A stretch of DNA of 64,000 bases, from contig CM075989.1 in assembly GCA_038087875.1 (NCBI GenBank), positions 24,058,001-24,122,000 on the forward strand, written 5' to 3'. The stretch's first letter is position 1. The number at the start of each line of letters is the position of its first letter. The notes beneath the pieces are model-generated. The model was not told the origin of the DNA. It saw only the letters and a list, made by a program, of their open reading frames with translations, and ran no database searches. Shown piece after piece: positions 12,701-63,710 of the stretch. Both the position numbers and the translations under genes were made by a program. This DNA comes from Malacoraja senta (Eukaryota).

Positions 12701-12795
12701 TCTGAAGAAGGGTCTCGACCCGAAACGTCACCCATTCCTTCTCTCCAGAAATGCTGCCTGTCCCGCTGAGTTGCTCCAGCACTTTGTGTCTGCAG
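12701..12795 (+). mobile_element. 95-bp PLE micro-insert starting at an intact hammerhead motif (12702-12729)
   Basis: CTGAAGAAGGGTCTCGACCCGAAACGTC; flanking direct repeat atggatagg at 12692-12700 and 12796-12804. Confidence 0.8.
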
Positions 12796-13633
12796 ATGGA
12801 TAGGACAGGTTTGGAGGGAGTCCACACAGACTAGTGATCACCCATTCATACCAGTTCTATCCTACACACTAGGGACCATTTATAGAGGCCAATTAAACTA
12901 CAAACCTGTACGTCTTTGGGATGTCTTCTAGATTCGTGATTAGTGCGGCTGTCGGAGGTTATGGGGAGAAGGCAGGAGAATGGGGTTGGGAAGGAGAGAT
13001 AGATCAGCCATGATTGAATGGCGGAGTAGACTTGATGGGCTGAATGGCCCAATTCTACGCCTATCCCTTATGGCCTTATGACCTTATGTTGTGGGAGGAA
13101 ACCTGAGCACCTGGAGAAAGCACACGTGGTCACTGGGAGAATGTGCAAACTCCTTACAGACAGCACCCGTAGTCAGTATCGAACCCGGGTCTCTGGCGCT
13201 GTGAGGCAGCAACTCTACCGCTGCGCCACCGTGCCGCTATGTTGCAATTTTCAGCAGGTCCCGATCAAAGACTTCATACATATGTATTAATTTAGGAGTG
13301 CAGTCACTGCTGTTACATGGACAAACCATTAGAGGGGGGTTGATCAACAGAGCACAGATCCAACGGCAAAGTTGGGAAAGTTAAATCATCGACCACAATG
13401 TTCCCATTTGTCACCAGCTGAGCACAATGGTTTATATTCTCACATTTGCCCCATTCCCTGGGAGTGTGAAACCGCACACCCCAACTTCATATCTTTATTA
13501 AAGTTTCTTTCTTGTAAGATCGGAGAGAGGTAACAGTAATTGTTATGAAATAAAAGTGGAATTTAAAAAAAAGCAAATATTCAATCATAAGCTTTGACAT
13601 TTTTAATCAATGCTCAGAGAGGAACCACAGGGT

Positions 13634-13734
13634 CAGTCTGAATGAAGAAGGGTCTCGACCCGAAACGTCACCCATTCCTTCTCTTCCAGAGATGCTGCCT
13701 GTTCCGCTGAGTTACTCCAGCATTTTCTGTCTAT
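13634..13734 (+). mobile_element. PLE micro-insert with hammerhead-like motif
   Basis: Flanking direct repeat cacagggt at 13626-13633 and 13735-13742. Confidence 0.75.
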
Positions 13735-14077
13735 CACAGGGTTAATAACTTTACTTCCCCTCTGTTATCACTGGAACCTGCTATATTCTTCACGAAATCT
13801 TATTGTTTTAGTGGGTCAAAGGATTAACATTTGTTTATGGTTTGTGGCTGCCCACATATTTGGCTTCTGATTACACATTCCTTTATCAAGATCTCAATAG
13901 AATTAGTCTCTGAATTTTTTGAATAAAGGCTTTTATGTGGGAGTGCACATAAGATTGTAATCAGACCCTGTTGTAATATATGGTTAAAGAGTTCTCTGCA
14001 GAGCCGTCCCAAATTGGCTTGCTATAAATTCTCCATGGCTTAACATTTTAAAAAGCTTTTAACTGTAGCAACTAAAA

Positions 14078-14370
14078 GGGGCGGTGCAGCGGTAGGATTG
14101 CTATCTTTCTTCACCTGAGACCCGTGTCCAAACCTGACTACGGGTGCTGTCTGTACGGAGTTTGTACGTTCTCCCCGTGACTGCGTGGGTTTTCTCCAGA
14201 TGCTCCAGTTTCCTCCCACACTCCAATGACGTGCAATTTTGTAGGTTAATTGTCTTTGGAAAAAATTGTAAGTTGTCCCTAGTGTGTGTAGGATAGTGTT
14301 AGTGTGAATGGGTGATCACTGGATTCCCCAAGCATCTGTTTCCGCGCTGTATCTACAAAGAGTAAAGTTA
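14078..14370 (+). mobile_element. HE1-type V-SINE
   Basis: tRNA-like head, V-domain (ttctccccgtgactgcgtgggttttctcc...tttcctcccacactcc), LINE-like tail. Confidence 0.85.
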
Positions 14371-14473
14371 TTTAGATGTAATTTGTCTCTGTTTTAAAGT
14401 TCTCCTCTTTATGTATTCAGATGTTTTCATGTCCTTGTTGATCCATATCTTTGCGACTTCATACAGTTAAAAC

Positions 14474-15396
14474 TAGGGTTGCCAACTGTCCCGTATTAGC
14501 CGGGACATCCTGTATTTTGAGCTAAATTGGTTTGTACCGTACGGGACCGCTCTTGTCCCGTATTTGACTGCTACTACTCGGGTCGAGGGGACTGTCGGGT
14601 CGGAGCGCTGCGTCCGGCCCCGCCTCACCCGTCCCGACGTAGTGCAGCCTATGGAGTGCAGCAGCAGCCTCGCCCGTGGCCCCGTCGGTCGGCAGCCCGG
14701 CCAGCTGTCCGACCTTCGGGCCTACGCTTACCGCCGACACCACCACCACCCCTCCTTCTCATGGCAGATCACTGGTTCATGAGTTGGAATGGGTGCCGCA
14801 CTTTGGCCTGGGCCAAAACTCCTCAGCTGGCCCGCCGGCTGGGCTTTGTGTGCTGTCTCGCTAGAATTTAGAAGATTGAGGGGGGAATTTATAGAAACTT
14901 ACAAAATTCTTAAGGGGTTGGACAGGCTAGATGCAGGAAGATTGTTCCCGATGTTGGGGAAGTCCAGGACAAGGGGGCACAGTTTAAGGATTAAGGGGAA
15001 ATCCTTTAGGACCGAGATGAGAAAAACATTTTTACACAGAGAGTGGTGAATCTCTGGAACTCTCTGCCACAGAAGGTAGTTGAGGCCAGTTCATTGGCTA
15101 TATTTAAGAGGGAGTTAGATGTGGCCCTTGTGGCTAAAGGGATCAGGGGATATGGAGAGAAGGCAGGTACAGGATACTGAGTTGGATGATCAGCCATGAT
15201 CATATTGAATGGCGGTGCAGGCTCGAAGGGCCGAATGGCCTACTCCTGTACCTATTTTCTATGTTTCTATGTTTCTATGTCCAGCACCCGGGGCAACCCA
15301 GCCACGGCCGAGTCGGTCAACGAATTGCCATCGGGAATTTGTCCCGTATTTTAACCTTTTGTCCCTTATTTGGGAGTGAGAAAGTTGGCAACCCTA
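14474..15396. mobile_element. hAT (Blackjack-like) MITE with a nested CR1
   Basis: 14-bp TIRs TAGGGTTGCCAACT / AGTTGGCAACCCTA; degenerate 8-bp TSD gttaaaac / gttgaagc; subterminal tgtccc repeats; GC-rich interior. Confidence 0.85.
14857..15279 (+). mobile_element. Young CR1/HER1-type LINE 3' end nested in the MITE
   Basis: SLEFRRLRGEFIETYKILKGLDRLDAGRLFPMLG; (tttctatg)n tail. Confidence 0.9.
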
Positions 15397-15761
15397 GTTG
15401 AAGCTCACTGTTCAAACCGTTTATCATCATCTCACACCCCTCACACAACACACACTTTAATTGACACAGCAGTAGAAATCGATCCACATCCAGCAGAATG
15501 ATATTGCATATTAAGAGATTTAACTCTGAGCAGTTTGAAATAATAGTGATCTACTAACATATTGCTGTTTCAATAACTTCATTACACTGATATCTATTTT
15601 ATCCACAAGTTGTCAACAAGCCAAACAGTTCTGGATGGTACACAAAAATGCTGGAGAAACTCAGCGGGTGCAGCAGCATCTATGGAGCGAAGGAAATAGG
15701 TAACGTTTCGGGCCGAAACCCTTCTTCAGACTGATAGGGGGTGGGGAGAAGAAAGGAAAAA

Positions 15762-17048
15762 AGGACAAGCAATCTATACCCGGCCACTGACACCCTCCTC
15801 CGCCTAGCGGAGCTGGTACTTACACTTAATAACTTTTCATTTGACTCCTCCCATTTCCTCCAAATACAAGGCGTAGCTATGGGCACACGCATGGGCCCCA
15901 GCTACGCCTGCCTCTTTGTCGGGTACGTAGAACAATCCCTGTTCAATGCGTACCAGGGCCCCATCCCCGACCTCTACCTCCGCTACATCGATGATTGTTT
16001 TGGTGCCACATCCTGCACCCACACACAACTGACTGACTTCATCCGCTTCACCACCAACTTCCATCCGGCACTCAAATACACCTGGACCATTTCCGACACT
16101 TCCCTACCATTCCTTGACCTCACTATCTCCATCGCAGGTGATAGACTCCTTACCGACATCCACTACAAACCTACCGACTCCCATGGCTATCTGGACTACA
16201 CTTCTTCCCACCCTGCTTCCTGTAAGGACTCCATCCCCCACTCCCAATTCCTCCGTCTACGCCGCATCTGCTCCCAGGATGAGGCGTTCCACACCAGGGC
16301 ATCTGAAATGTCCTCATTCTTCAGGGAACGGGGGTTCCCCTCCTCCACCATAGATGAGGCTCGCACCAGGGTCTCTGCCATACCCCGCAACACTGCTCTC
16401 TCTCCCCATCCCCCCACTCACAACAAAGGCAGAGTCCCCCTAGTCCTCACCTTTCACCCCACCAGCCGTCACATACAACAAGTGATCCTCCGTCAGTTCC
16501 GCCACCTCCAACGTGACCCCACCACTCGCCACATCTTCCCATCTCCCCCTATGTCTGCCTTCCGCAAAGACCGCTCCCTCCGTAACTCCCTTGTCAATTC
16601 TTCCCTTCCCTCCCATACCACCCCCTCCCCTGGTACTTTCCCTTGCAACCGCAAGAGATGCAACACTTGTCCCTTCACTTCCCCCCTCCGCTCCATTCCA
16701 GGACCCAAGCAGTCGTTCCAGGTGCGACAGAGGTTCACCTGCATCTCCTCCAACCTCATCTATTGCATTCGCTGCTCTAGATGCCAGCTGATCTACATCG
16801 GTGAGACCAAGCGGAGGCTTGGCGATCGTTTCGCCGAACACCTCCGGTCGGTCCGCAATAACCAACCTGAACTCCCGGTGGCTCAGCACTTCAACTCCCC
16901 CTCCCATTCCGTATCTGACCTCTCTGTCCTGGGTCTCCTCCATGGCCACAGCGAGCAACACCGTAAATTGGAGGAAATGCACCTCATATTCCGCTTGGGC
17001 AGTCTACATCCTGGTGGCCTGAACGTTGAATTCTCCCAATTCTGCTAG
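15762..17048 (+). CDS. PLE reverse transcriptase (C-terminal part) + Cys linker + GIY-YIG endonuclease, N-terminally truncated
   Basis: QGVAMGTRMGPSYACLF, YLRYIDDCF, PFLDLTI, CNRKRCNTC linker, NLIYCIRCSRCQLIYIGETKRRLGDRFAEH, terminal GLN; no stops or frameshifts. The track's GTG start lies in the inverted pLTR and is not a real start. Confidence 0.93.
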   Translation, partial: RTSNLYPATDTLLRLAELVLTLNNFSFDSSHFLQIQGVAMGTRMGPSYACLFVGYVEQSLFNAYQGPIPDLYLRYIDDCFGATSCTHTQLTDFIRFTTNFHPALKYTWTISDTSLPFLDLTISIAGDRLLTDIHYKPTDSHGYLDYTSSHPASCKDSIPHSQFLRLRRICSQDEAFHTRASEMSSFFRERGFPSSTIDEARTRVSAIPRNTALSPHPPTHNKGRVPLVLTFHPTSRHIQQVILRQFRHLQRDPTTRHIFPSPPMSAFRKDRSLRNSLVNSSLPSHTTPSPGTFPCNRKRCNTCPFTSPLRSIPGPKQSFQVRQRFTCISSNLIYCIRCSRCQLIYIGETKRRLGDRFAEHLRSVRNNQPELPVAQHFNSPSHSVSDLSVLGLLHGHSEQHRKLEEMHLIFRLGSLHPGGLNVEFSQFC

Positions 17049-17167
17049 CCCTGGCTGTCCCCTCCCCTTCATCAGCCATCTGGTTGTCTCCGCCCCTCCC
17101 CCAACCCTCGGGCTCCTCCTTTTCCTCCTTTTCCTTTTTTCCTTTCTTCTCCCCACCCCCTATCAGT

Positions 17168-17195
17168 CTGAAGAAGGGTTTCGGCCCGAAACGTT
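17168..17195 (+). ncRNA. Minimal hammerhead ribozyme motif in the PLE 3' pLTR (mirror copy at 15702-15729, minus strand)
   Basis: CTGAAGAAGGGTTTCGGCCCGAAACGTT, ~120 nt after the ORF stop. Confidence 0.78.
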
Positions 17196-17334
17196 ACCTA
17201 TTTCCTTCGCTCCATAGATGCTGCTGCACCCGCTGAGTTTCTCCAGCATTTTTGTGTACCTTCGATTTTCCAGCATCTGCAGTTCCTTCTTTAACAAAAC
17301 AGTTCTGGATCCTGTTTCAGTGCAGCCATTAAAC

Positions 17335-17798
17335 CAGGGGTGGGCAACCTTCTTCTGCATAGGGGCCGGGACGCATGTCTGTGAGCGGATGGCGGGCCAC
17401 ATCTACCACGTGTACACATGGATCCCACCCCCATCCCACCCCGGATGGCAGGCATCAAATCACGTGTCCACAGAAGGTAGACAAAAATGCTGGAGAAACT
17501 CAGCGGGTGAGGCAGCCTCGTGCAATCCTTGCATGTCTCACCCGCTGAGTTTCTCCAGCTTTTTTTGTCTACCTTCGATTTTTCCAGCATCTGCAGTTCT
17601 TTCTTAAACGTGTTCACAGAAGGTGTGTGTCCGTGCCGGCGGCTTTGCGCAGGATGCGGTGCAGCCAGAGCTCGGCCGCGCTCGGGGCGGGCGCTCGGCG
17701 GGCCGGATGATTACGGGGGAAAAAAATCAGCCTGCGGGCCGGATGATTTTGGGTTACGGGCCGCATTTGGCCCAGGGGCCGTAGGTTGCCGACCCCTG
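17335..17798. mobile_element. hAT (Charlie-like) MITE
   Basis: TIRs CAGGGGTGGGCAACCT / AGGTTGCCGACCCCTG; perfect 8-bp TSD cattaaac at 17327-17334 and 17799-17806; gggcc(g) subterminal motifs. Confidence 0.92.
17479..17607 (+). mobile_element. Small PLE-derived hairpin insert nested in the hAT MITE
   Basis: Inverted pLTR arms plus tail; 17-bp TSD acgtgt(c/t)cacagaaggt at 17462-17478 and 17608-17624. Confidence 0.85.
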
Positions 17799-18954
17799 CA
17801 TTAAACCATGTCCTCTTAGGTGTTAAAAAACAGCATTTTATTTATTATATTGATGCTGTTGAATTAAAGTATCAGGTTTTTATTATCCTTATTAGATTTA
17901 TTTTTATTTTATCATAAAGATCTCAGTTTAAGTATCTTTCAAGTGTATTTCCATGTAAATGTATGTGTAATGCAATGTAATGATGCAAGAACAGGTTAAA
18001 ATAACAACTGCAATGTGACTAACAGAACACAATTAAAATGTGTTTGGTAATGCAAAAATACTGGTGGTGCTCTTAAAAATGCCAATAATCACAGGCTCAT
18101 GTGTTAAATATCAAGTATGTATTTTTTTTGTAGCTTTGATTCACAAAATATCAAAACTTAAAGCCTTTTGCACACTTCCCAATAGTTTAATAAGTTAAAT
18201 AATAATTCGCACCTACAGTGAATGGTTCCTGGTTCGGCAGCACAGGATTTAAAAATTTGGACAAAACATACAATGGGATTGTGAGGGAAGGCGTTTTACA
18301 CAGTGAATGGTCATAATCTGGATTTCATTGCAGATGGGAGTGGAACAAAAATCACGCTGTGCCTTCATAGGGGAATTGGAGAAGCACTTGAGAAAGAATA
18401 ATTGCTGGGGCTATGGGGAGAACGCCAGGAACTGAGTGGGTTGTCTTACTTGGAGATAGCATGGACTAGATGGGCCAAATGGCAGTGTTCTGTTCGGTGG
18501 CAATGACCCGACTCCTCAGAGGGTTGTAAATGCAAGTATCGCTACGTCCATTAGCACAGCTTTAAATTGACTAAAATTAGCCTTTTTTCTGTGTCGAGGC
18601 TCAGGATATACACGTTGGCTCCGCTCCGATGTCCACATACGGGAAATAAATCATGCCGGGGAGCCTTGCAGAAACATGAAATGAATGAGCTGCGGGATCG
18701 TTGCCAGAACCCCATGTGCATAATAAATTTAGTATTTTTTAAGGAAAAGTGAGAGTTGAAAAATTAACATGAGTGGAAATGGCAAGAATGCGATGGTAGT
18801 GCATCTCCCAACGTCAGACTCACAACCACTCAGAGGCCCAAAGTATAGTCTTGCATTTACTGGAATCCCACTGTGGCCTAAATGGAAATGTATTCACCCG
18901 CTATAGTTGTGTGAAATATTCACGGGATGCAAGTAGCATTGGTTCCAGTGTCAG

Positions 18955-19107
18955 CATTTAGTGCAAGATAAAGGTGAGTATAGTCCAATTACAGATAGTC
19001 CAAGGTGTCTCCAATGAAGTAGATGGGTGGTCAGGACCACTCTCTAGTTGGTGATAGGATGGTTCTGTTGCTGATAACAGCTGGGAAGAAACTGCCCCTG
19101 AATCTGC
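18955..19107 (-). mobile_element. Rex1-type LINE fragment
   Basis: ctgataacagctgggaagaaactgcccctgaatct matches the Rex1 ORF end / 3' UTR. Confidence 0.65.
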
Positions 19108-19944
19108 ACCTGTATGGCAGTGTTTGTGAGTTACGTGTGCTGCCTTCTTGCACATTGTTCCCAAGCCTTGCTGATGTCGTTTTGGCTGAGGCTGCCATTT
19201 GCTGTCCTCAATATTGTTCTTTGATGAAGTTCCCCTCTGAATGTCCAATGGGTTAAAACTCTTTACACCCACTTCATGGTTCAGCATCTCCTCATGGGCT
19301 GTGCATAGATTTCAGACTTTCTTTCCAATCCGCTTTTTAGTAGCCAACTCTTTGGAAAAACTGTCAATGAGTTTAAGAATTTGCACCCCTTAATGTTTAT
19401 TTGCTAACCTTTATAAAGTGCCAAGGCACAGCACATATGATTCTCCATTGGCAAGCTCCAAATGGAAAGTCTCATTCTGGCAAGGAACCCATGCTGAATA
19501 TTAAATGACCAACCCGAGAGGATTCAACAAAGTTGGCCATTTCAAACTCAAGCAAGTACTAGTGGTGTATCAGAATCTTGCCTCAACGCCAGCACAGAAA
19601 CATTTCTCCTATTGTCTGAAAATTGGCCCAGAAAACCATTGGGATGTAATTCTGTCAGTAATGCCAGCCAATGTGGTCTTCCATGGTCCATGCTGGACTT
19701 TGTGAGGTTATCGGCATCTCAAAGCACTGGAGATGGATCACCAAAGCTTCAACGACCTTGGCAGCATCAACTGCCCTACAGGTTATCATTGTCTCCCAGG
19801 CTTACAGCTCCACTAATAGTCATAGAGTGATATAGCACGAAACAGGCTCATCACCCAACTTGCCCACACTGACCAACATGCCTCATCTACACTAGTACCA
19901 CCTGCCTGCGTTCGGCCCAGATACCTATAAACCTATTCTATCCT

Positions 19945-20255
19945 ATTTAGTTTAGAGCTTCAGCGTGGAAACAGGCCCTTCGGCCCACCAAGTCCATGCC
20001 AACCAGCACTCCCCACACATTAACAATATCCTACACACACTAGGGACAATTTACACGTACACCAAGCCAATTAAGCTGCATACCTGTACGTCTTTGGAGT
20101 GTGGGAGGAAATCGAAGATCTCGGAGAAAAACCACGCGGTCATGGGGAGAACGTACAAACTCTGTATAGGCAGCACCCGTCGTCAGATCGAACCCGGGTC
20201 ACTGGTGCTGCAAGCGCTGTAAGGCAGCAACTCTACCGCTGCTCCTCCATGGCCG
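19945..20255 (-). mobile_element. HE1-type V-SINE
   Basis: Full head, V-domain and tail on the minus strand. Confidence 0.85.
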
Positions 20256-20485
20256 CCAACTATCTTACGTTATCATTGTCTCCCAGGCCTACAGCCTCAC
20301 CACAGAGTCATAGAGTGATACAGTGTGGAAACAGGCCCTTCAGCCCACACCGACCAATATGTCCCAGCAACACTAGTCCCACCTGCCTGCGATTGGCCCA
20401 TATCCGTATAAACATATCCTATCCATATACCTGCCAAAATATTTCTTAAACATTAGGATAGTAACTGTCTCCACTACCTCCTCTG

Positions 20486-20950
20486 GATAGGTGATGTTTT
20501 GGGTTGGACCCTTCATGATCAGATCCATCAGTCTGGTCACCTATCCATGTGTATGAAAGAACTGCAGATGCTGGTCAAAATCAAAGGTAGACACAAAATG
20601 CTGGAGTAACTCAGCGGGACAGGCAGCCTCCCTGGAGAGAAGGAATAGGTGACGTTTCGGGTCGAGACCTTTCTTCAGACTGATGTCAGGGGAGGGGGTG
20701 GCCATGTTCTCCAGAGATGCTGCTTGACCCGCTGAGTTACTCCAGCACTCTGTGAAACGTCACCTATCCATGTTCTCCAGAGATGCTGCTTGACCTGCTG
20801 AGTTACTCCAGCACTCTGTGAAACGTCACCTATCCATGTTCTCCACAGATGCTGCCTGACCCGCTGAGTTACTCCAGCACTCTGTGAAACGTCACCTATC
20901 CATGTTCTCCTGCTTGACTCGCTGAGTTACTCCAGCGGTTTGTGTCTACA
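20486..20950. repeat. PLE-pLTR-derived 66-bp tandem array with a nested minus-strand pLTR fragment (~20551-20701)
   Basis: gaaacgtc recurs at 20754, 20820 and 20886 (66-bp period); nested piece flanked by ccatgt repeats. Confidence 0.85.
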
Positions 20951-21069
20951 GTATCTTCAGAATTTAACACACGTTCGGTTTAAAGTTATTTTTAGAAACT
21001 GTAAGTTGTCGTGTTATTACGGATGAGGCAGCTTTACAAAAGCTCGTGAATCTGCAGAGAAGTTTCACT

Positions 21070-21425
21070 TCAGTTTAGTTTATTGTCACGTGCACCGAGG
21101 TAGAGTGAAAAGATTTTTGTTGCGTGCTAACCAGCCAGCAGAAAGACATAACATGATTATAATCATGTCTGAAGAAGGGTCTTGACCCGAAACGTCACCC
21201 ATTCCTTTGCTCCGGAGATGCTGCCTGTCCCGCTGAGTTACTCCAGCTTTCTGTGTCTATCTTCGGTTTAAACCAGCATCTGCAGTTCCTTCCTACACAT
21301 TACAATCAAGCCATTTACAGTGTGTAGGTGCATGATAAGGGAATAATGTTTAGTGCAAGATAAAGCCAGCAAGGTCCAATCAAGGATAGTCCAACGGTCA
21401 TCAAAGAGGTAGATAGTAGTTGAGC
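21070..21425 (-). mobile_element. Rex1-type 3' UTR interrupted by a PLE micro-insert
   Basis: The Rex1 3' UTR is collinear on both sides of 21168-21298. Confidence 0.75.
21168..21298 (+). mobile_element. 131-bp PLE micro-insert beginning at a hammerhead motif (21169-21196)
   Basis: TCTGAAGAAGGGTCTTGACCCGAAACGTC...gcagttccttcctacac; TSD attataatcatg / attacaatcaag. Confidence 0.82.
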
Positions 21426-21474
21426 TGTCTGTTATTAGTTTTCAATTTGCATGGTTCATCCACTTCACTGTCTT

Positions 21475-21922
21475 AGAAACATAAGAAACATAGAAATAGG
21501 AATAGGCCATTCATCCCTTCGAGCCTGCACTGCTATTCAATATCATCTTTGCTGATCATCTAAAATCAGTACCCCGTTCCTGCTTTCTCCCCAATATTCC
21601 TTGATTCCGTTAGCCCTAGGAGCTGAATCTAACTCTCTATTGAAAACATCCAGTGAATTGGCCTCCACCGCCTTCTGTGGCAGAGAATGCCACAGATTCA
21701 TAACTCTCTGGGTGAAAAAGTTTTTCCTCATCTCAGTCCTAAATGGCCTACCCCTTATTCTTAAACTGTGACCCCTGGTTCTGGACTCCGCGAACATCGG
21801 GAACATTTTTCCTGCATCCAGCCAGTCCAATCCTTTAAGAATTTTATAAGTTTCTATAAGATACCCTCTCATCCTTCTAAATTCCAGTGAATACAAGCCG
21901 AGTCGACCCATTCTTTCATCAT
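21475..21922 (-). mobile_element. CR1-type LINE 3' end
   Basis: YDERMGRLGLYSLEFRRMRGYLIETYKILKG (ORF 21543-21941). Confidence 0.9.
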
Positions 21923-27152: not shown

Positions 27153-27741
27153 GCTGTCCTTGGTGTTTTCTGCATCCACACAGTCATTGAGACCTCAGGC
27201 ATGAGTAGTTTAATTTTGTTTAGTTTTTTGTCATGTGTACAGACGTGCAGTGGAAAAGTGCTAACCAGTCAGTGTAAAGACAATAGATGATTACAATTGA
27301 GCCATCCATAATGTATAGATGAATTAAAGCATTGCTGGAAATATTTAATGACACCTAGTGCTGGAGTAACTCCGTGGGTCAGGCAACATCTCTGGACGAC
27401 ATGGATAGGTGCTGTTTTGGGTTGGGACCCTTCTTCAGACTGAAGTGTTTTGCTTAAGATTCTAGCATCTGTAGTTCCTTGTGTGTTCATTTATTAAAGG
27501 GCTGACTCAAAGAACTGTAGCTACTGGTTTCCTGACATTGTAGTGGGGTTGGGGGGGGGGGGGAAAGAGAGATCTGGAAAGGAGCTGGATACAAATGAGG
27601 GGGAGTTTGATAAAGCAGAAGGTGGACAAAGGCTTGATATGAAATGCAGTCAAAAGGGTGTCAGATGAGGAGATAAGAGGGAAATGTCAAGCAAGGTGGT
27701 GGGGGGGGGGTATAATGGAAGGGGGGAAAGGGAAATATTTA

Positions 27742-28004
27742 AGAAAGAACTGCAGATGCTGGATAAAATCAAATGTAGATGCAATGCTGGAGTAACTCAG
27801 TGGGAGCGGCAGCAACTATGGGAGAAGCAATGGGTGACGATTCGGGTCGAGACCCTTCTTCAGACTGATGTCGGCAGGGGTGGCGGTGGCCCTCCCTCCC
27901 CCGACATCAGTCTGAAGAAGGGTCTCAACCCAAAACGTCACCCATTCCTTCTCTCCATAGATGCTGCCTCACCCACTGAGTTACTCCAGCATTGTGTGTC
28001 TACC
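27742..28004 (-). mobile_element. PLE-derived fold-back with two degenerate hammerhead motifs
   Basis: Inverted arms around ~27875-27900; 14-bp TSD aagggaaatattta at 27728-27741 and 28005-28018. Confidence 0.85.
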
Positions 28005-32744: not shown

Positions 32745-33279
32745 CATAGATACATAGATACATAGAAAATAGATGCAGGAGTGGGCCATTCGGCCCTTCG
32801 AGCCTGCACCGCCATTCAATATGATCATGGCTGATCATCCAACTCGGTATCCCGTACCTGCCTTCTCTCCATACCCCATGATCCCTTTAGCCACAAGGGC
32901 CACATCTAACTCCCTCTTAAATATAGCCAATGAACTGGCCTCAACTACCCTCTGTGGCAGAGAGTTCCAGAGATTCACCACTCTCTGTGTGAAAACGTTT
33001 TTCCTCATCTCGGTCTTAAAGGATTTCCCCCTTATCCTTAAGCTGTGACCCCTTGTCCTGGACTTCCCCAACATCGGGAACAATCTTCCTGCATCTAGCC
33101 TGTCCAACCCCATAAGAATTTTGTACGTTTCTATAAGATCCCCTCTCAATCTCCTAAATTCTAGCGAGTATAAGCCAAGTCTATCCAGTCTTTCTTCATA
33201 TGAAAGTCCTGACATCCCAGGAATCAGTCTGGTGAACCTTCTCTGCACTCCCTCTATGGCTATAATGTCCTTCCTCAGA
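32745..33279 (-). mobile_element. Young CR1/HER1-type LINE 3' end nested in an older CR1 tail (32678-33300)
   Basis: ORF 32835-33248; the outer element is collinear as ttcaacca|tggctgatctatctctcc. Confidence 0.9.
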
Positions 33280-33831
33280 TGGCTGATCTATCTCTCCATC
33301 CTAAAGTCTAGATCATCTAAAGCAAATCTGAGGAAACAAACGAGGCTTGTGGGTTGCCTGAGGGAAAACTTGGGACTGGAATAATCTTTCAATGTGTTGT
33401 ATCTTTTCCAGGATTGGGATAAATTAAGACATGTTTGATGGATTTACAAAGAGGGTGGTGGATGCCTGGGATGGTGGTGGATGCAGATACAGTAGGGGCA
33501 CCAGAGGCTTTTAGACAGACACGTGTGAATATGGATCACGAGCAGGCAGAGGAGATTAGTTCTAGCTGGCATCATGTTCAGTACAGACATTGTGGGCCAA
33601 AGGGCCTGTTTCTGTGCTGTATTGTTCTACGTTCAATATTTCTGTGATTTGGGAATACTCAATATAAATGGTATTTTCTGAAGAGTGAGCCAAAGTGCTG
33701 GAAGTCACTCAACGGGTCAGGCAGCATCTCTGGAGGAAAAGGGTGGGTGCTGTTTCGGGTTGGGACTCTTCTTCAAAGAAGCACTTTTGTGCCAATCATT
33801 TGGTATAAACCAGCATCTTTTTAATTGGGCA

Positions 33832-34565: not shown

Positions 34566-34707
34566 TTTAGAAAGAACTGCAGATGCTGGAAAAATCGATG
34601 GAAGACAAAAATGCTGGAGAAACTCAGCGGTTGAGGTGAAGAAGGGTCTCCACCCGAAACGTTGTGTATTCCTTCGCTCCATAGATGCTGCCTCACTCAC
34701 TGAGTTC
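34566..34707 (-). mobile_element. PLE-derived fold-back micro-insert
   Basis: 16-bp TSD ctccagcatggtttgt at 34550-34565 and 34708-34723. Confidence 0.8.
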
Positions 34708-51061: not shown

Positions 51062-51468
51062 ACTGAAATTTAGGATGAGTGGGGATCGTATAGAAACGTA
51101 TAAGATTCGTAAGGGATTGGACAGGCTGGATGCAGGAAAAATGTTCCCCATGTTGGGGGAGTCTGGAACCAGGGGTCACAGTTTAAGAATAAGGGGTCGG
51201 CCATTTAGGACTGATATGAGGAAAAACGTTTTCACCCAGAGAGTTGTGAATCTGTGGAATTCTCTGCCACAGATGGCAGTGGAGGTCGATTCACTGGATG
51301 TTTTCAAGAAAGAGTTAGATATAGTTCTAAGAGCTAACGGAATCAAAGGATATGGGGAGAAAGCAGGAGCAGGGTACTAATGTTGGATGATCAGCCGTGA
51401 TCATATTGGATGGCGGTGCTAGCTTGAAGGGCCAAATGGTCTACTCCGCATATTTTCTATGTTTCTAT
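51062..51468 (+). mobile_element. CR1-type LINE 3' end
   Basis: IETYKIRKGLDRLDAGKMFPMLGESGTRGHSLRIRG; tttctatg tail. Confidence 0.9.
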
Positions 51469-54198: not shown

Positions 54199-54934
54199 GT
54201 AGGTGGCGCGTCCGACGTTGCAGTGGCCTCTGCAGTCCTTCTGTCTTTGTTTTGTCTCATTGAGTGTATAGTTTTGTTGTGGTTTTATATTGTTTTTAGC
54301 TGTGTATATGTGTGTGTGTGTGGGGGGGGGGGGGTAACCTTTGAATCTCTTCCCTGTACGGGTGACCCGACCTTTTCCCTGCCGGGTCTCCGTTGTCGTT
54401 GGGGCCTAGCACCGTGGAGCGGCCTCCAACCGGAACGACCTGGGGGCTCCAGTCGCGGTGCCTGCGTGGGGCTGGCCGGCTTCGGAGCGTGGAGAGCTGT
54501 GGTGGCGCGCTATTGCGCCCCGACTCCGGAACTCGGAGGCTCCAGCCGCAGGTCTGGTGGACAGTGACATTGGGAGCTCGCGGGTCCCTGGTGGGAGACC
54601 GCTTTTCGGAGCTCCCGCAACGGCAACTTCTCCCGCCCGAGTTGCAGGGTTGAAAATGACCTGGAGCGGGGCCATACATCGCCCGCGCGGCTTTAACGGC
54701 CGTGGGACTTGCCATCGCCCGCCGGGGGCTTTAACATCGGGAGAAGAATGGAAAACAGGGAAGAGACAAGACTTTGCCTTCCATCACAGTGAGGAGGAGA
54801 TTCACTGTGATGGATGTTTGTGTAAACTGTGTTGGCTGTGTGTCTTGGTTCTTTTCTTGTTGTATGACTGCAGAAACCAAATTTCGTTTGAACTTCTTTT
54901 GAGGTTCAAATGACAATAAATTGTATTGTATTGT
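54199..54934 (+). mobile_element. GC-rich non-coding retroposon with a Rex1-style tail (putative non-autonomous element)
   Basis: CpG-rich body; 13-bp hairpin at 54780-54814; terminal stem-loop, then tgacaataaa(ttgta)3 like the Rex1 tails in this window. Confidence 0.55.
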
Positions 54935-55052
54935 ACTTATCAAAAGCTTGCTCTAGATTATTCAGTTTCATAGCGACAGGACGGGAAAGTCTCTGAAACT
55001 GCATGGTCATAAAAACATACTCTTATGTTTAATGGAGAAAGCCTAGATCTGT

Positions 55053-55305
55053 AGGGCGGTGCGGAAGAATTGCTGCCTCACAGCGCCAGAGACCTGGGTT
55101 CAATACTGACTGTGGGTGCAGCCCGAACGGAGTTGTAAGTGACCGCGTGGGTTTTCTCCAGGTGCTCTGGTTTCCTCCCACACTCCAAAGATGTGCAGGT
55201 TTGTAGGATGATTGGCTTTGTTAAAAAATTTTAATTGTCCTTAGTATCTGGAGATAGCTGGTCAACATGGACTGTTCCCACACTATATTTCTAAACTAAA
55301 CTAAA
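55053..55305 (+). mobile_element. V-SINE
   Basis: Head, V-domain, (ctaaa)n tail. Confidence 0.8.
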
Positions 55306-57160
55306 CCTTTTCTATTTGGTATTGGTTTATGATCCGAAGGAATGGAAATGCAGGACTCAAACACCATTGTAGTTTCCTGGCAAAAATTCCTCGGGCGAAT
55401 TTACATGAAGCATTTAGTGCATATATATATATATATATATAAAACAAAAGTCAATAATAAGTAAGTGACATGTTAAGTAGCAACATTAACTATAAAAGTG
55501 GATATAAGTTGCAAAATAAAATTAGCCATAACTTTTCAAATGAAGTATTCTGCAAACACAGGTACCATTACGCAGACACACAATGCCCTTTATTCAACCT
55601 GACATCCCTCCATGAGTATTCCGTCTTCCAGTCATGTCAGTCAGCAGGAATTCCTATTGGGATTTTCTAATGGCAGAAGCAGTAATGCTGAAGATAATGT
55701 TCAGCAATTGACATAAACCAAGTCCCAACTGGGACAGGGAATTAAGAAGCAGTTCAGGGATATTTAGAAAACCCACTAGCATCAAATCTGCATCCTTTCT
55801 ACAGTTATTTGTAAGTTTACATCCAGCTGCAGGCAATGATGTTTCAGAATAGAGATACAAGGAATGGCGATGCTGGAACCGCAAGTACAACACTAGGTGC
55901 TGAAGTAACTCGAAGGGTTGGGGAGGGAATGAATGGGTGGTGTTTTGTGTCAGGACCCTTCTTCAGTGATTGTAGTTAGGGGGGGGGGGAAGAAAGCTAG
56001 ACAAGAGAGGGGGGGAGGGTGCATGGCAGATCTTAGCAAGTGGAACATATATAGAAAAAGTGCTGGAGTAACTCAGCGGGACAGGCAACGTCTCTGGAGA
56101 GAAGGGATGGTTGACGTTTCAGGGCGGAACCCTTCTTCAGATGAGGTGGATACAAGTGATGGGGACTTTGCCCCTTGGTTCACTCATCTGCGGATCAAAG
56201 GCGAGAGTTGAACTGAAGACAGATAAGGAGAGAAGAGGAATGAAATGTGAAGCCAGGGGGAGGAGTGTCGGGGGGAAAGGGGCAAGGAGGGGGTGGAGGG
56301 ACAGGTAGTTGAAGGAATGGGGGGGTGTTCAATTTTCCCCCTGTTGGGTCGGCAGCTACCCAAGTGGAACATGAAGGTGCTATTCCTCCACTTTGCATCT
56401 GGACTCGCTCACCCTGGATTTGGATTCATTGCCCCACTGACCTTCTGTGACGTGAAAATCCTTGGAAGGGCCAGATTTATCTTTCTTAAAAACTTTGTAA
56501 AACTGTCTGGGCAGTAGGTCAATGCAGAGGCAACATATTCCTCCCCTCGTTTAATAATTTGCATGTGATTTTCTGCTTGACTGGATTTATCGGTCCCTCA
56601 GAATTCCAGGTTCAGCCTGCAGTTTACTGTGACTCGTACACGCTGCAAACGGCCCTCATTATCTATGGATGTTCCGAACAGTCAGTTAAAGCTGACACTG
56701 TCACGATGTACTTAGTTAGTCTTGATCGCAGCTGGGGTTTGCACTCGAGTTCAGAGGGAATATATGCGAGGTGGTGTGAATCAATGGAGCAGCCAATTTC
56801 CTTGACATCTGGTCCCCCTGAAATAGAGGAACGCATCATCAATAACGTTCTAAGCTGGGAGATGCTGGGAGACGTTGGGAGGTAATCGGTCCATTTGTGG
56901 TGTCCGAGAGCAGAATTAAAATCGGCCAAGTGATGTCCCAATACAACAGACACTTCATCAGTCAATAGCAATGTCTTTAACATTGTAGAATATTCATGGG
57001 AGCATTCTCAAATAAAGTTAGGGCTGTGCATGAACTTATTCCATGGTATATCCAGCAGTATGAAACGATTCAGATGTAACCTTAAAAAGGTGATTCGTGA
57101 CATTTTGCATTGCATTTAGTTATGTCCCACCTCCAAAGTTGCTGAAACCTTCTTGGGGTG

Positions 57161-57236
57161 GGTGAGCAGTTATTTGAGTCTATCACGATTTGAACCCAGG
57201 TGAGCAGTTATTTGAGTCTATCACGATTTGAACCCA
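57161..57236. repeat. Perfect 38-bp tandem duplication
   Basis: ggtgagcagttatttgagtctatcacgatttgaaccca x2. Confidence 0.95.
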
Positions 57237-59198
57237 TGGAAATGGTCCGAGGTGAATTATTGCTGTAATGCAAGCTGCAGGTTTTTAAGTTGGAGTGTAC
57301 AATTATGTTTTTTTAACATTTAATGAGGAGAAAACAGAGTGGGGCACGTGACTGAATTTCCAGTATGTGCCATTCTGGGTAACACTCCTCTGGTTAGAGG
57401 AAGCCAAAAGACAATTTGTGCCTCTGGAGTAGAATTTTCAAAAGTTGAAAACTATTTCTGTTTCTTCCAGGAATATAACTGATTTCCACCAAGCTTTCCA
57501 AACTTGCTATAACCACCCTACTTAAAGCAAATCTCATGATGGGTTGTTGAGCCAAACATTACTCTCAAATGTTTCTCCAGATGTGCAGCTCTGGTAGTTC
57601 AGAGATCAGTTCCTTTCATGCTATGACCTATCCAAGAATGTAGGAAGGCACTGTCCCTTAAGTTGCACACATTTACCGCAGCTGTTCGTGTTCCACTTCA
57701 GTGACCTCAGCGATCTGAAGTCGATTGAATAAAAGTTGTTGTGAAGTAACTACCTCTCTTCAATGGTAATCATTGCTCTCTCCAGCCTCTTATTCTCCAA
57801 TCTTGGATTGTGGATCTTTCTCCTCTTCACCCGCCACAATCCCTCAGGATTGAGGGTAACATGCTTCTTTGGATTATCCTTATTCGACCTTGACTGGACG
57901 ACCTTGTTATTGCCTTTACCTGTATCTGTACACTGGATGGCTCGATTGTAATCATTTGTGGGTGGGTATATATAGTCTTTCTGCTGACTGGATAGCCTAG
58001 TGAGAACTCTATCAGCAAGGCCTGGGATCAATGTGCAACACACAACTCACACAGACTGCCATACTCTTCCAGCCTCTCGCCAACTAGTGCTCCTCTCCCG
58101 TCTACCTCATTGGAGACCTAATTGAACTTTATCTTGCACTAAACATTATACCCTGTCTCCTGTATCTACAGACAGTGGGTGGCTTTATTGTAATGTACAG
58201 TCTTTCAGCTGATTGGCTAGCACGCAACAACAAAGTCTTTCTCTGCACCTCTGTACACATGTTAATAAACTAAACTAAACTGCACTTTCTTTGGTGTGTT
58301 TCTGTGGTGACTGAACTGGAGACTTGCACACATGGGTTGGGAGGTGCTATTGAGATGGATGGTTTGTACTGTCTACACTTTCCACTGTTTTTAGGGCATC
58401 TATCTGCTCCTGAAGCATGTCCTCGTGGATCATTCCACCATCCCTCATGCTGTTTCTGACTGGGTATGGGCCAGAGCTTTCCACTTTACCTCGGTACATA
58501 ATAATAAACTGAACTAAATGGGGATGAGTATTAATGTTGCAAGTTCTTACTTGGAAACTCTGAACAATCCTTCAATCTTCTCCTCTGTTTGAAAGGTTGC
58601 AGATTTTTACAGAGTTCTCTTTCCAACTCCATTAATTCATAAAACTTATTTGTTCAGGAAATTGATCATAAATAAGACTGAACTTTGGGTCTGCAGAAGG
58701 GTCTTGACCTGAAATATCTCGACCTGAAAAGTCACCTATTCCTTTTCTCCAGAGATGCTGCCTGACCAGCTGAGTTACTCCAGCATTTTGTGTCTATCTA
58801 CAGTTCCTTGTTTCTATAAAGTGGTGAGAATGATTGAACTAAGATCTTATCTGCTAAAGTGGCCATCAAAATGTGAGTTTTTGTTTTCACCAATTTCATT
58901 TCATTTATTTCTACAAAAAGACGATTTGAATGAGTAATCGCAACTTTTCTTTGAAAATATTAATAGCAAATGCAAACCAACATGATGAAGTTGTAATGTT
59001 CCTGAGTTGTTGCCTTTTCACGGCAAGATCATGCAGTCAGCATTCATCGTACACACCCAGAAAACTTTAGTCGTATATAATCATGTTCTACCTTAAACTA
59101 AGGTCCTTTTTTGTTAATTTCAAGAGAATCTAGATGGTTAATTGTCATATGCACGGGCAAGGTGAACAATGAGAATCTTTCTTGCTGCATCAATGCAT

Positions 59199-59495
59199 GT
59201 TTAGAGATACAGCACGTAAACAGGCCCTTCAGCCCACTGAGTCCACGCCAACCAACGATCCCCGCACATTAACACTATCCTACACCCACTAGGGACAATT
59301 TTTACATTTACCAAGCCAATTAACCTTCAAACCTGTACATCTTTGGAGTGTGGGAGGGAACTGAAGATCTTGGAGAAAATTCACGGGGTGAACGTACAAA
59401 CTCCATACAGACAGCACCAGTAGTCAGTATTGAACCCGGGTCTCCCGCGCTGCATTCGCTGTAAAGGCAGCAACTCTACCGCTGCGGCACCGTGA
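59199..59495 (-). mobile_element. HE1-type V-SINE
   Basis: Near full length on the minus strand. Confidence 0.85.
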
Positions 59496-59849
59496 CCGTT
59501 AATGAACCGATACCACAAACAATCACACAATAATCAATAATACAATAATTGATCAATTAGACTAGGTGACTGGGCCATGGTCATGCAAACTGAAGTACAG
59601 GCATCTCGCGATGCTTGATTTGTGGATTTTTGAAATGCTCTGCTTGTTCCTTTAATGCCAAAGCTTGAATTAGCTACTGGTATTTTAGGAATAAAGTGCT
59701 CAGATTTACTGCCGGCAGCGTAGTCACGAATATATGTGTGTGATTTACTGGTTTTTGAATTAAGCACAGCCTTCGAAGCGCCTAACCCCCATGTACAAAG
59801 AGAGGTGCCTGTACTGTTTGTGGTGATGAAACCTAAACAAACAACATAG

Positions 59850-60615
59850 TTCAGTTAGTTTATTGACGTGTGTATCAAGGTACAGTGAAAAGCTTTGTCG
59901 CGTGATAACCAGTCAGTGGAAAGACAATACATGATTACAATCGAGCCATTTACAGTGTGTAGATACATGATAAGGGAATAATGTTTAGTGCAAGGTTAAG
60001 CCAGTAAAGTGCAACCAGTTTGGTGTGGTAGGGTTGTGGTTAGGAGTGTGGTTACGGTTGTGGTTAGGGTTGTGCCCCAAGAACCTGATGGTTGATGGAC
60101 AAAGCTGTTCTGGACGCTGGTGGTCACAGTTCTCGGGTTCCTGGGTCTTTGATGTTGCTTCCCTTGGATTGTCTTTGACGGTGGGGAGATCGATACCTGT
60201 GATGAGCTGGGGCAATGTCCACCACTTCCTGCAACCTTCATCTCTGTCACACACCTGGTGAGGTTCGATATAATATTCAGTGACATGCCCAATCTCCCCA
60301 AACCTCTGAGGAAGTAAAGGCATTGATCAGCTTTCCTGCTGCTGGGGCCAGAACACATCTTTGGAGAAACAGTCAACCAGGCACTCCCTCCACTTGCAAT
60401 CCCTTCAATTAAAACTCTGCTTTCCTCTCTTGAAGTCAACAATCAACTCCTAAGGGCCTGTCCCACTATGGCGACTCTTTAGGTGACTGCCAGGGACAAG
60501 TTTTAATGGAATTCACCTACGACACCTGGTGACAACCTACGACAATGAAATCGTAGCCACCCAAAAAATGGCCTAAGTGGGACAGGCCTAAATCCTGTTA
60601 ACATTGAGAACAAGA
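59850..60615 (-). mobile_element. Rex1-type LINE remnants (3' tail plus degraded RT C-terminus)
   Basis: Minus strand LNVNR..ELIVDF, QCLYFLRGLGRLGMS and TGIDLP remnants. Confidence 0.7.
60454..60588. mobile_element. PIF/Harbinger-like MITE
   Basis: 13-bp TIRs GGCCTGTCCCACT / AGTGGGACAGGCC flanked by TAA on both sides; interrupts the Rex1 remnant. Confidence 0.75.
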
Positions 60616-61562
60616 TTCAATCAGATTGATTATTGATCACCCTCCTGTGCTCTATTCGTCCAACAGCAGGGATAACAGGGATACAATTTAAAGATGGTGT
60701 TAGAGTTCTGACTGTCTATATAGTCATGGGAATTGTTGGAAGTTGAGGGGAGACTGATAAAAGTATATAAAATCATGGGGCATAGATCAGGTAAATGGTC
60801 AGAACCTTTTTCCCCAGGGTGGAGAGGTCCAGAGGGTAAAGCCATGAGTTGGGCGGGTGAGATGTGGGACATTTGTGTAGTGGTGAAGCAGGCTGAAGCC
60901 ACACGAGGAAGCAGGCAGATCTGACATTGTTATACAGCAAGTATACAGGCAATGGTTCAAAAGTTGATCGCTGGAGTAACTCAAAAGTTGTAAAGCTGGT
61001 TGTATTTTTGTTTTGAGGAGATATTTAATACACTCAAGTTCTCCAGTGTGAAGGCAATGAGGATGAAGCTACTTTGAGAATGAAACGGTCGGGTCCCAAA
61101 GGCAGTTTCTGGGTTTGGTTTACACACTTGACACCAGCATTTGGTTGGGGGGTGCATGAGGGAGTGATGTTATTTATGTGTTCTAGAAGGAATTTGACAA
61201 TACAATGCAAGAATCTGTTTAGCAAAATGAGAGCACATGGAATTGGAGATGACCTTGCATGCTTGGCAGGAGGTAGTAGATGGAGAATAGGGATGATGGT
61301 TTTGAACTTAAATTGGCATGATGTGGCAAGCATTGTCCCCTGTGACCTGGGTAGGGATTGCAGCTGCCATTACATTTGTAAATGGTTTGAATGAAGGAGT
61401 TGAATGTCATGTGTCCAACTTTTGCTGGCACTACTGTGTTTGAATGTAATGCTTGCAAGTTCCACAGGGATGTTGATGAAGTTAATAGAATGCAAGGCTG
61501 TGGTAGATGGTATTCAAAGTTCAAAACCAGTGTGAGCTTCCAATTTAATCTCCAATGAGAGA

Positions 61563-61852
61563 TTAGTTTAGTTTGGAGATGCACTGTGAAAAGGACCCTT
61601 TGGCCCATCGAGATCCATGCCGACCAGCAATTACCCCTACTCTAGTTCTAAGTTATCCCGCTTTCACATCCCGCACACTAGGGGCAATTTACAGAAGGCA
61701 ATTAGCCTACAAACCTGCATGTATTAGCATTGTGAGAGGAAACCAGAGCACCCGGAGAAAACCCACAAGGTCGCAGGGAGAACTACAAACTCCACACAGA
61801 TAGGATCAAAACGGTCTCTGGCACTGAGGCAGCAGCTCTACCACTGTGCCAC
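61563..61852 (-). mobile_element. V-SINE
   Basis: Head, V-domain and tail on the minus strand. Confidence 0.78.
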
Positions 61853-62091
61853 CAAGTTGTAAACAGCAAAAAGCTTGTTAATTTAGAGATAGAAGTACAA
61901 CAAATTACTTGTCACATGTGGACAGGTATAAAACTGCACAGTGAAGTTCCTTTATTGCTATATTGAAGTGAAACTGATATCTTGTTACTATTTCTGGAAA
62001 TAACAGAAGTGTGAAATCTGAAAAAGTGTTGTACTTTATCTTGTAAATGTTTGATTTTGTGTAAATGGCTTGATACCTACCAATATGTAGA

Positions 62092-62492
62092 TACATAAAT
62101 ACATAGACAATAGGTGCAGGAGGAGGCCATTCGGCCCTTCGAGCCAGCACCACCATTCAATGTGATTATGGCTGATCATCCATAATCAGTACCCCGTTCC
62201 TGCCTTCTCCCCATATCCCTTGATTCCGCTAGCCCTGAGCACTATCTAACTCTCTGTTTGAATGCATCCAGTGAATCGGCATCCACTGCCTTCTGAGGCA
62301 GAGAAGTCCACAAATTCACAACTCTCTGTGTGAAAAAGTTTTTCATCATCTCGGTTCTAAATGGCCTACCCCTTAGTCTTAAACAAAGCTGCCCCCTGGT
62401 TCTTGACTCCCCCAACATCGGGAACATGTTTCCTGTATCTAGCGTGTCCAATCCCTCAATAATTTTATATGTTTCTATAAGATCGCCTCTCA
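62092..62492 (-). mobile_element. CR1-type LINE 3' end
   Basis: RGDLIETYKIIEGLDTLDTGNMFPMLGESRTRG. Confidence 0.9.
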
Positions 62493-63164
62493 CATATTAC
62501 CCTGGTTTAAGTTTATCTTTGGCACCTGTACAGAGCTACAGGGAACAGCTTTGTTTTGCTTGCTATTCATTCAGTTAATACTCTACGTAGATTGGAAAGA
62601 TGTTGTCAAGCTGGAAAGGATACCAAGAAGATTTACGAGGATGTTGCCATGACTAGAGGTTTGAGTTATAGGGAGAGATTAAGCTGGGTATTCCTTGGAG
62701 CACAGGAGGATGAGGGGTGATCTTACAAAGGTGTATAACATCATGAGTAATAGATCGGGTAGACGCCTAGAGTCTCTTGTTGATACCTGGAAAGGACAGG
62801 TTTGGACCAAACGCAGGCACGTGGGACCAGTGTAGCTGGGACATGTTGACCAGTGTTGGGCCGAAGGGCCTGTTTCCACACTGTATCACTCTCTGACTCT
62901 ATACAATCAAACCAAACTTGGGTACAATAGGCAGAGCAAAGGGAAAGAGTGCTGAATATAGTTCTCAGCACTGAAGCGCAGAATTGAAGTGAAGCCATTG
63001 CTGGATCTTTACGCTTTGGTTAGAACATTACTGAGCTGAAGGCAATTCATTATGTGAATCACACCGCAATAAAGCAATTCCTGCAGTGAACTGAGTTGAG
63101 GTATGATTGTTTGAAGTTGCCAAATAAATACTTGGTTCTCTGACATTTCTTATGGGTGGTATAG

Positions 63165-63445
63165 AGGCACAGCAGTAGAGTTGCTGCCTTGCAGCACCAG
63201 AGACCCAGGTTCAATCCTGACTATGGGTGCTGTCTGTAAGGAGTTTGTACGTTCACCATGTGACCGCGTGGGTTTTCTCCGGGTGCTCCAGTTTCCTCTC
63301 ACATTCCCAAGACGTGCAGGTTTGTAGGTTAATTGGCTTCTGTTAATTGTCCCTAGTGTGTGGGATAGAACTAGTGTACGGGGTGATCGCTGGTCAGCGT
63401 GGACTTGGTTGGCCGAAGGACCTGTTTCCACGGCGTATCTCCAAT
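63165..63445 (+). mobile_element. HE1-type V-SINE
   Basis: Full head, V-domain and tail. Confidence 0.87.
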
Positions 63446-63615
63446 GTAATGTATTACCGTGACTATTAGATTGCATAATGGTGCTGCAAAGTGAGATAGC
63501 GACCAGATTATCAGAGATAACGACTGATTTTAAGCAATCTTGGTTGAGAAATAAAGAATTGTCTGTATATGGGGAAAACATAAAACCAGGAAAATACTGC
63601 AAGTATTCAGAAGGT

Positions 63616-63710
63616 CTGAAGAAGGGTCTCGGCCTGAAACGTTGCCAATTTCCTTCGCTCCATAGATGCTGCTGCACCCGCTGGGTTTCTCCAGCATTTT
63701 TGTCTACCAT
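63616..63710 (+). mobile_element. 95-bp PLE micro-insert starting exactly at the hammerhead core
   Basis: CTGAAGAAGGGTCTCGGCCTGAAACGTT...; 15-bp TSD aagtattcag(a/t)aggt at 63601-63615 and 63711-63725. Confidence 0.82.

Follow-up and report, generated by a model that had tools for sequence, protein, structure and literature searches.

Solo pseudo-LTR pieces of Neptune-type Penelope-like elements in Malacoraja senta share a common 5′ start at the hammerhead head

Short repeats of 95 or 130 bp, headed by a minimal hammerhead motif, recur in a 64,000-nt stretch of the 1.94-Gb genome of Malacoraja senta (GCA_038087875.1, contig CM075989.1, positions 24,058,001 to 24,122,000; G000:C13:24058001-24122000, here called the window). 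We conclude that these repeats are solo pseudo-long terminal repeat (pLTR) pieces of successive subfamilies of Neptune-type Penelope-like elements (PLEs), one of which is very young, and that their 5′ ends gather at the CTGAAGA head of the hammerhead. The feature is real and the kind of element is known; the breakpoint pattern was previously unremarked and is testable, and the copies are not a ribozyme-bounded new family. Positions in the repeated module are counted from the C of CTGAAGA (+1, window 17168) in the copy linked to an open reading frame (ORF), so that 0 is T, -1 is G, and -2 is A.

Results

Copies of the module and their target-site duplications

A profile hidden Markov model of the module, built on 32 natural copies and run with nhmmer, gave 54 matches in the window and 846 in an unselected 1.264 Mb, made up of the 264 kb surrounding the window and 20 further 50-kb blocks, with none on the reversed sequence used as control. 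Since blastn with 12701-12795 as the query matched 52 pieces in the window, the original prediction was right that the module recurs there, but its count of about 30 was too low. Non-inverted copies that start at the head numbered 113 in the 1.0 Mb outside C13, which corresponds to roughly 2x10^5 mini-copies per genome, provided that the sampled blocks are typical. For the youngest subfamily, one 48-nt stretch has 19,137 exact matches genome-wide (control 0).

Solos make up about half of all copies. Four of them, cited in the original prediction as stand-alone copies with their own target-site duplications (TSDs), were found where it had placed them:

12701..12795 (+): solo module without tail (about 0..+94), TSD 9/9 bp
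13634..13734 (+): solo module without tail, start about -3, TSD 8/8 bp
21168..21298 (+): solo module with tail (0..+130); the G at 21167 equals parent -1
63616..63710 (+): solo module without tail, TSD 14/15

Three of the TSDs were thus borne out as scored, and that of 21168..21298, about 10 bp with one mismatch plus 2 nt, is visible by eye, below the score of our script. The head of 13634..13734 holds a short internal duplication, CTGAA-TGAAGAAG. In the wider sample, nearby TSDs flank 67 of 442 head-bearing non-inverted copies, compared with 24 of 4361 flank-swapped controls, and in 46 of these 67 TSD-verified copies the left TSD ends at most 6 nt upstream of the head or within it. TSDs of the young subfamily are mostly 12-16 bp long.

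A fixed 5′ start

To place 5′ ends, we took 156 natural extended references and aligned 857 of 899 non-tandem copies against them. The breakpoint set covers ~1.95 Mb that were partly picked around young or full-length copies, and is not genome-wide with respect to 5′ extent. Statistics rest on 412 non-inverted copies of at least 88% identity, of which 332 were at risk for a start at the head. Starts fall at -5..+8 in 180 of these 332, with a mode at -1/-2 and a rate 14.9 times that of the flanks, and for the unselected 1.264 Mb by itself the figure is 243 of 393. Among terminal young modules, 55 of 85 start there. The original prediction of non-random 5′ ends at the head was therefore sound.

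The peak lies at the same position in copies with a tail at the 3′ end (73/145) and in copies without one (96/167), and therefore the start is set by position and not by the distance copied. Abortive synthesis over a fixed distance was rejected, as both kinds of copy stop at one place. The pLTRs that lie 5′ of an ORF behave otherwise: among 29, a number that includes two units inside long tandems, one of them the reference, 22 reach +8 and only 2 of the 22 start at -5..+8 (Fisher p=2e-6 vs. 55/85). This rarity of the head stop upstream of an ORF argues against a plain sequence roadblock.

Two further features mark the junction itself. A G stands ahead of 30 of 70 starts at -1/-2, or 26 of 62 once head duplications are set aside (26.5% expected, p=0.006). 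This excess is confined to -1/-2, with 3/24, 2/14, and 6/33 at other starts, and G makes up 4 of the 5 one-base fillers that are TSD-verified there. Moreover, in 8 of 181 solos a stretch of the head has been copied again directly upstream (control 2.7), as expected if the reverse transcriptase (RT) re-primes at an end.

Random 5′ truncation does leave a trace, a smooth background of ~0.003 per nt, and splicing to the head could be imagined on account of a CAG that follows a pyrimidine tract there and a donor-like site at the ORF start. We give almost no credence to either explanation, and both are refuted as the main source by the 15-fold peak, by the left TSD ends at the head, and by the 489 heads inspected, none of which has the donor-side exon joined upstream. 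The donor-like AAG/GTATG overlaps the ORF's ATG (L040:3922-3934), and the acceptor-like tract with CAG precedes the hammerhead (window 17140-17167); splicing or back-splicing between two such predicted sites would give an exon of ~160 nt. No donor-to-head joint occurs among the joints listed for X1, X2, X5, and X19. X2, X5, and X19 show loose ends before L040:3766-3767 (-2/-1), which hint at a DNA boundary common to related genomes.

Two 3′ ends and inverted pairs

In 107 young copies, a total to which inverted pairs contribute two arms each and one locus contributes in duplicate, the 3′ end lies at +91..+96 in 62 and at +128..+132 in 29. The two sizes of the repeats, 95 and 130 bp, follow from these two fixed 3′ ends at +93 and +130, a PLE tail signature; an optional tail on one end is already described as such in the cited part of PMC8557442. 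Non-inverted copies divide into 259 with the tail, 259 without it, and 50 with other ends. In head-to-head inverted pairs, an arm with the tail is joined to an arm without it in 88 of 104 (p=3e-13); 14 pairs with an unclassed arm were left out of these counts. The corresponding features of the window are:

17258..17263 (+): first 3′ end class (+91..+96, no tail)
17261..17296 (+): optional tail of ~36 nt, ending at the second 3′ end class (+128..+132)
15637..15769 (-): inverted 5′ arm (-39..+93, no tail) of the 15.6-17.3 kb insertion
10085..10616 (no strand): head-to-head inverted pair of one tail and one no-tail arm, 14-bp TSD
27742..28004 (no strand): inverted pair, 14-bp TSD
17479..17607 (no strand): short inverted pair without the hammerhead, 17-bp TSD with one mismatch

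One CAGCAU copy lies upstream of each 3′ end class, and as read from the letters GAUGCUG (17216-17222) can pair with either of them (17243-17248 or 17273-17279). Such alternative pairing is a possible switch between two RT start sites.

The parent element

The window also holds a young, 5′-truncated member of the parent family:

15738..17048 (+): ORF of a young Neptune-type PLE, 5′-truncated, with the C-terminal part of the RT, a CX4CXXC linker, and GIY-YIG
17049..17162 (+): pyrimidine-rich 3′ untranslated region (UTR), subfamily-specific
17163..17169 (+): TCAGTCT, initiator-like (also CAG acceptor-like), kept in all subfamilies; solo 5′ ends peak at -2..0

The protein of this ORF is 100% identical to most of 96 scored genomic matches, and its GIY-YIG domain was recognized with E=0.00043. 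Full copies hold a single frame of 1,200-1,250 aa with RT, the CX4CXXC linker, and GIY-YIG at the C-terminus, preceded by a partial-tandem pLTR. In one of them, L040, the 1238-aa ORF matched RVT_1 (E=6.6e-6) and GIY-YIG (E=0.0015), both short of the Pfam curated cut-off. Its translation shows the CX2-5CxxC linker and two cysteines within GIY-YIG, a defining trait that the cited part of PMC8557442 describes as common to Nematis. The partial-tandem pLTR, inverted arm, optional tail, and TSDs are all present as well. By its predicted domains, its linker (shared with Nematis), and its pLTR structure, the parent is a Neptune-type endonuclease-bearing (EN+) PLE.

The order of the parent is ORF stop, pyrimidine-rich 3′ UTR, TCAGT, hammerhead, +93, tail, +130, and the next ATG ~35 nt on. 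In older subfamilies with the GGGTCTCGACCC stem, the module likewise follows the end of a GIY-YIG ORF at a distance of 90-230 nt; the 3′ UTR is particular to each of them, TCAGT-CTGAAGAAGGGT is the same, and C-3 and A-2 are ~90% conserved across subfamilies despite facing mismatches in stem I. The PLE origin that had been proposed for the repeats is upheld. Ahead of the RT, L040:3932-5400 encodes a long, proline-rich N-terminus with repeats of ~26 aa. L040 and L041 are perfect multi-unit tandems of the whole ~4-kb element, with units 99.4-99.9% identical.

The hammerhead does not set the boundary

17166..17197 (+): minimal type I hammerhead with 2-bp core stem I, CUGAAGA, an extra A, 4-bp stem II, and GAAAC-GUU
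between 17195 and 17196 (+28/+29, +): predicted cut, from the established type I topology

A descriptor of the type I hammerhead matched 115 times, and never on the reversed sequence, although an Rfam scan gave no match to its hammerhead models. The conserved core, stem II, the palindromic stem III (self-duplex -5.5 kcal/mol), and NUH are all retained, so the minimal type I hammerhead of the original prediction is confirmed as a motif whose cleavage is predicted. The stem II variants it listed do stay paired: GGGT-TTCG-GCCC (98) and GGGT-CTCG-ACCC (97) are the two commonest among 505 copies, and the CTTG variant (18/505) is a change expected from CpG decay. Subfamily changes in the 505 copies fit the fold (A/G at +17 and +29; C/T at +13, +14, +28, and +32) and are all one-sided; two-sided compensatory pairs numbered 0 in 11 distinct rows, whose divergence is too small. 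Stem I has two core pairs and up to two more via -4/-5, bases absent from most solos, whose own stem I is reduced to 1-2 bp. In the head region competing folds are more stable, and the hammerhead does not have the minimum energy. The head (17166-17177) can also pair with the end of the tail (17286-17296), which would hide the catalytic core.

A ribozyme-defined boundary had been proposed for these copies, but a type I hammerhead cuts ~28 nt downstream of the CUGA box, after GAAAC-GUH, and no peak of starts lies there. The start rate at +28..+31 matches the background (5 over 1479 nt exposed vs. 112 over 34,106), and starts at +28..+34 are not in excess among non-inverted copies (8/374). In the young set, 7 of 107 copies start at +28..+33, four of which are arms of two inverted pairs; this hint of cut-site starts was gone in the larger non-inverted set. 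Inverted copies start at the cut site (18/210) at the rate of the neighboring +14..+27. The breakpoint plot that the original prediction called for thus gave the peak at the CTGAAGA head and none at the hammerhead cut. Cleavage of the RNA at +28/+29 would strip off the CUGA box, and since this is retained in the copies, the boundary is not cut by the hammerhead, and the ribozyme appears to ride along without setting it.

These results bear directly on the view of the repeats as a distinct, retrozyme-like unit bounded by the hammerhead cut. Although the kept core and stem II, the subfamily changes that fit the fold, and the seven young starts near the cut speak in its favor, this is highly improbable: the cut would remove the CUGA..GUH segment that is present, there is no excess of starts at it, the copies are monomers, and solos hold 1-2 bp of stem I. 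Tandems of at least two hammerhead units are lacking among the cited copies, and the 66-bp arrays of the window have no CUGA; processing of a unit at the hammerhead cut finds no echo in the breakpoints at +28/+29.

Pieces of the parent or a separate family

Among 506 labelled copies (321 solo, 185 extended), every large module haplotype has both kinds, and haplotypes found only in solos are those of 3-4 copies. The largest has 61 solo and 26 extended copies that are equally diverged (4.70 vs. 4.77 differences), and both stem II types occur behind GIY-YIG ORF ends. We found no master lineage of the solos with diagnostic changes absent from autonomous copies, and the proposal of a distinct non-autonomous family is therefore not supported. 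A defined 5′ end with TSDs, as in short interspersed nuclear elements (SINEs), is nevertheless present.

Solos could still be transcribed themselves and supply many new solos in trans, in a SINE-like second round. What this would require is, on paper, present in them: the start motif, both RT start sites, and what may be an internal promoter. Young solos are also more diverged from the intact parent than young extended copies (1.55 vs. 0.67 differences), as in the youngest haplotype (0.69 in 13 solos vs. 0.10 in 51 extended copies), and the +35C change belongs to a solo in 8 of 8 young copies. However, no main haplotype is solo-only, divergence is equal in the largest subfamily, +35C is present in 8 extended copies of the wider set, and 5′ transductions are not shared: only two pairs among 181 solos have upstream sequence in common, one by a head duplication and the other probably by a shared host repeat. 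Age, the disappearance of long copies, or second rounds that start from solos could each account for the higher divergence of young solos, and a large contribution of such rounds is in our view improbable.

Arrays and neighboring sequences

20702..20950 (+): 66-bp tandem array of module +21..+87, without the CUGA box
36351..36710 (+): head followed by a 66-bp tandem array

Arrays of this 66-bp unit (+21..+87), with one common junction, occupy 17 loci in C13:23.96-24.22 Mb (264 kb) and none in 1.0 Mb elsewhere, which suggests local spread, e.g., by gene conversion between neighboring modules. A different array was seen at L242:395-5501 (G000:C2688:130794-135900), where at least 12 head-to-tail units of 408 bp (-118..+291 of the young element, 99% identical), each with a hammerhead, are preceded by an inverted tail arm. 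It is a bona fide array of the non-LTR-retrozyme type, the only locus that we place in this class, and it could have arisen by rolling-circle copying or by local expansion. At window 12138-12500 and 27333-27690, the module is joined to upstream sequence that is not from the parent and holds an inverted piece of the tail; three such copies lie within 40 kb on C13, either through local duplication or as a passenger in another repeat. The window also contains 3′ fragments of the ORF2 of another long interspersed nuclear element (LINE), which we take to be CR1-type, at 4548-5003, 8820-9383, 32835-33287, and 50898-51380.

Discussion

How the short copies arise

We think it somewhat probable that the short copies are TSD-flanked solo PLE end-pieces produced by RT run-off at a capped RNA start in TCAGTC, a motif that fits the initiator (Inr) consensus. 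The RNA would begin at the head, at this initiator-like motif, and +93 and +130 would be RT start sites inside the module, by analogy with the PAc element of Anolis, with the two nicked DNA strands using different ones. On such a head-initiated RNA, the RT would halt after ~95 or 130 nt when it runs off the capped 5′ end, leaving solos or inverted solo pairs, and the extra G before starts at -1/-2 would be the copied cap. A second pool of templates, longer-than-unit RNA (read-through or circular) without an end at the head, would give the smoothly truncated, full-length, and tandem copies. The predicted start at TCAGTC is drawn from DNA breakpoints and motif likeness. An extra G is described as a mark of cap copying at full-length L1 junctions in the cited part of PMC11702581.

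Several points weigh against run-off. Were the usual mRNA initiated at the head and copied from the 3′ pLTR, more than 2 of 22 ORF-upstream pLTRs should start there, and so the model requires the putative second template pool. Inr matches are short and common. The head peak is wide, spanning -5..+8, and in inverted copies, whose palindromes provide microhomology, its shoulder extends to +13. The alignment ends of old copies are uncertain by a few nt. Finally, the excess of G is modest (42% vs. 27%) and could be given by untemplated addition or microhomology.

The chief rival to run-off is a boundary defined by protein, in which the RT-endonuclease binds the folded module and, once this is copied, releases it or resolves it with the endonuclease at the module edge, so that no RNA end is needed. 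Such an arrangement would explain why the stop is made only when the RT starts within that module, and it agrees with the fold of the full young module from head to tail end (z=-2.25) and with the TCAG-T-CTGA near-palindrome at some inversion centers. It does not predict the extra G, however. Lack of the tail changes neither the position of the stop nor its rate, pairing between head and tail seems less strong in the other main subfamily, and shuffled sequences fold as well as the solo copies do (z 0 to -0.9). We regard this rival as unlikely.

Run-off could also be one step of a "strong-stop" cycle, which we consider rather doubtful. Here a capped head RNA with a 3′ pLTR trimmed by the hammerhead would bear a terminal repeat of ~30 nt (-2..+28), with its RT start sites confined to the neighborhood of the 5′ end, and run-off would be followed by integration, giving the ~2x10^5 mini-copies, or by strand transfer. 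A jump to the 3′ repeat would regenerate the pLTR, like retroviral strand transfer with LTRs, and mini-copies that keep the start motif and the RT sites could seed more copies, like a Pol II SINE.

Comparison with known elements

Much of what we describe is in print: PLE structure, tails, hammerheads, solo pLTRs, and pLTR-derived retrozymes appear in the cited parts of PMC7229834, PMC6765202, and bioRxiv 10.64898/2026.07.22.740005. Neptune-clade PLEs (PMC8557442, PMC3846280, as far as the cited sections go) likewise have RT, the CX4CXXC linker, a C-terminal GIY-YIG, partial tandems, an inverted 5′ arm, an optional one-end tail of 30-40 nt, variable TSDs, and solo pLTRs. The same sections report variable 5′ truncation and solo pLTRs that lack TSDs and arise by recombination or deletion, whereas the present solos have TSDs, amount to half of the copies, and share one start.

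Anolis Poseidon PAc, in the cited part of PMC11167929, is alike in that its RT has two internal start sites, one on either side of the tail, and extends both DNA strands; hammerhead cleavage was dispensable in vitro and uncleaved RNA served as substrate. In contrast, the PAc ORF begins inside the hammerhead, whereas here the ATG lies ~35 nt past the tail, and that part of the account reports no 5′ hotspot. Minimal PLE hammerheads (PMC4209133, in the portion cited) are alike in their type I topology, the extra base before stem II, the palindromic stem III, and the short stem I, and dispersed single ones were there already ascribed, "probably," to truncated PLEs; here stem II is 4 bp, core stem I is 2 bp, and the breakpoints were mapped. 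Animal non-LTR retrozymes (PMC7229834; bioRxiv 10.64898/2026.07.22.740005, cited in part) are also pLTR-derived, hammerhead-bearing, non-coding, and dispersed in part as monomers, but they are tandems of at least two hammerhead units that are made circular, whereas the present copies are monomers within parent subfamilies.

An Inr and an internal promoter downstream of the start are described in the pLTR of D. virilis Penelope, with the start upstream of an intron that ends at the hammerhead (PMC2377424, in the part cited). Here, the putative start falls on the hammerhead, and we saw no copies that had been spliced. For a rotifer pLTR, the cited part of PMC3846280 notes a TCACT that resembles an Inr. 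Our literature searches pointed to no earlier mention of short PLE copies that begin at one set place at the hammerhead head; Repbase/Dfam, Lunse 2017, and the supplements of PMC4209133 and of the 2026 preprint (one chondrichthyan) may hold this family.

For annotation, the repeats are best entered under the Neptune subfamilies, as their solo pLTR pieces, and not as a new retrozyme family. In the cited part of their account, Schostak 2008 saw no obvious mechanism for pLTR regeneration (PMC2377424). The present findings touch on two questions of the field, the making of pseudo-LTRs by PLEs and the role of their hammerheads. With a very young family and more than 19,000 identical module copies, breakpoints read at the level of single bases distinguish two putative pools of templates and point to a candidate transcription start at the head.

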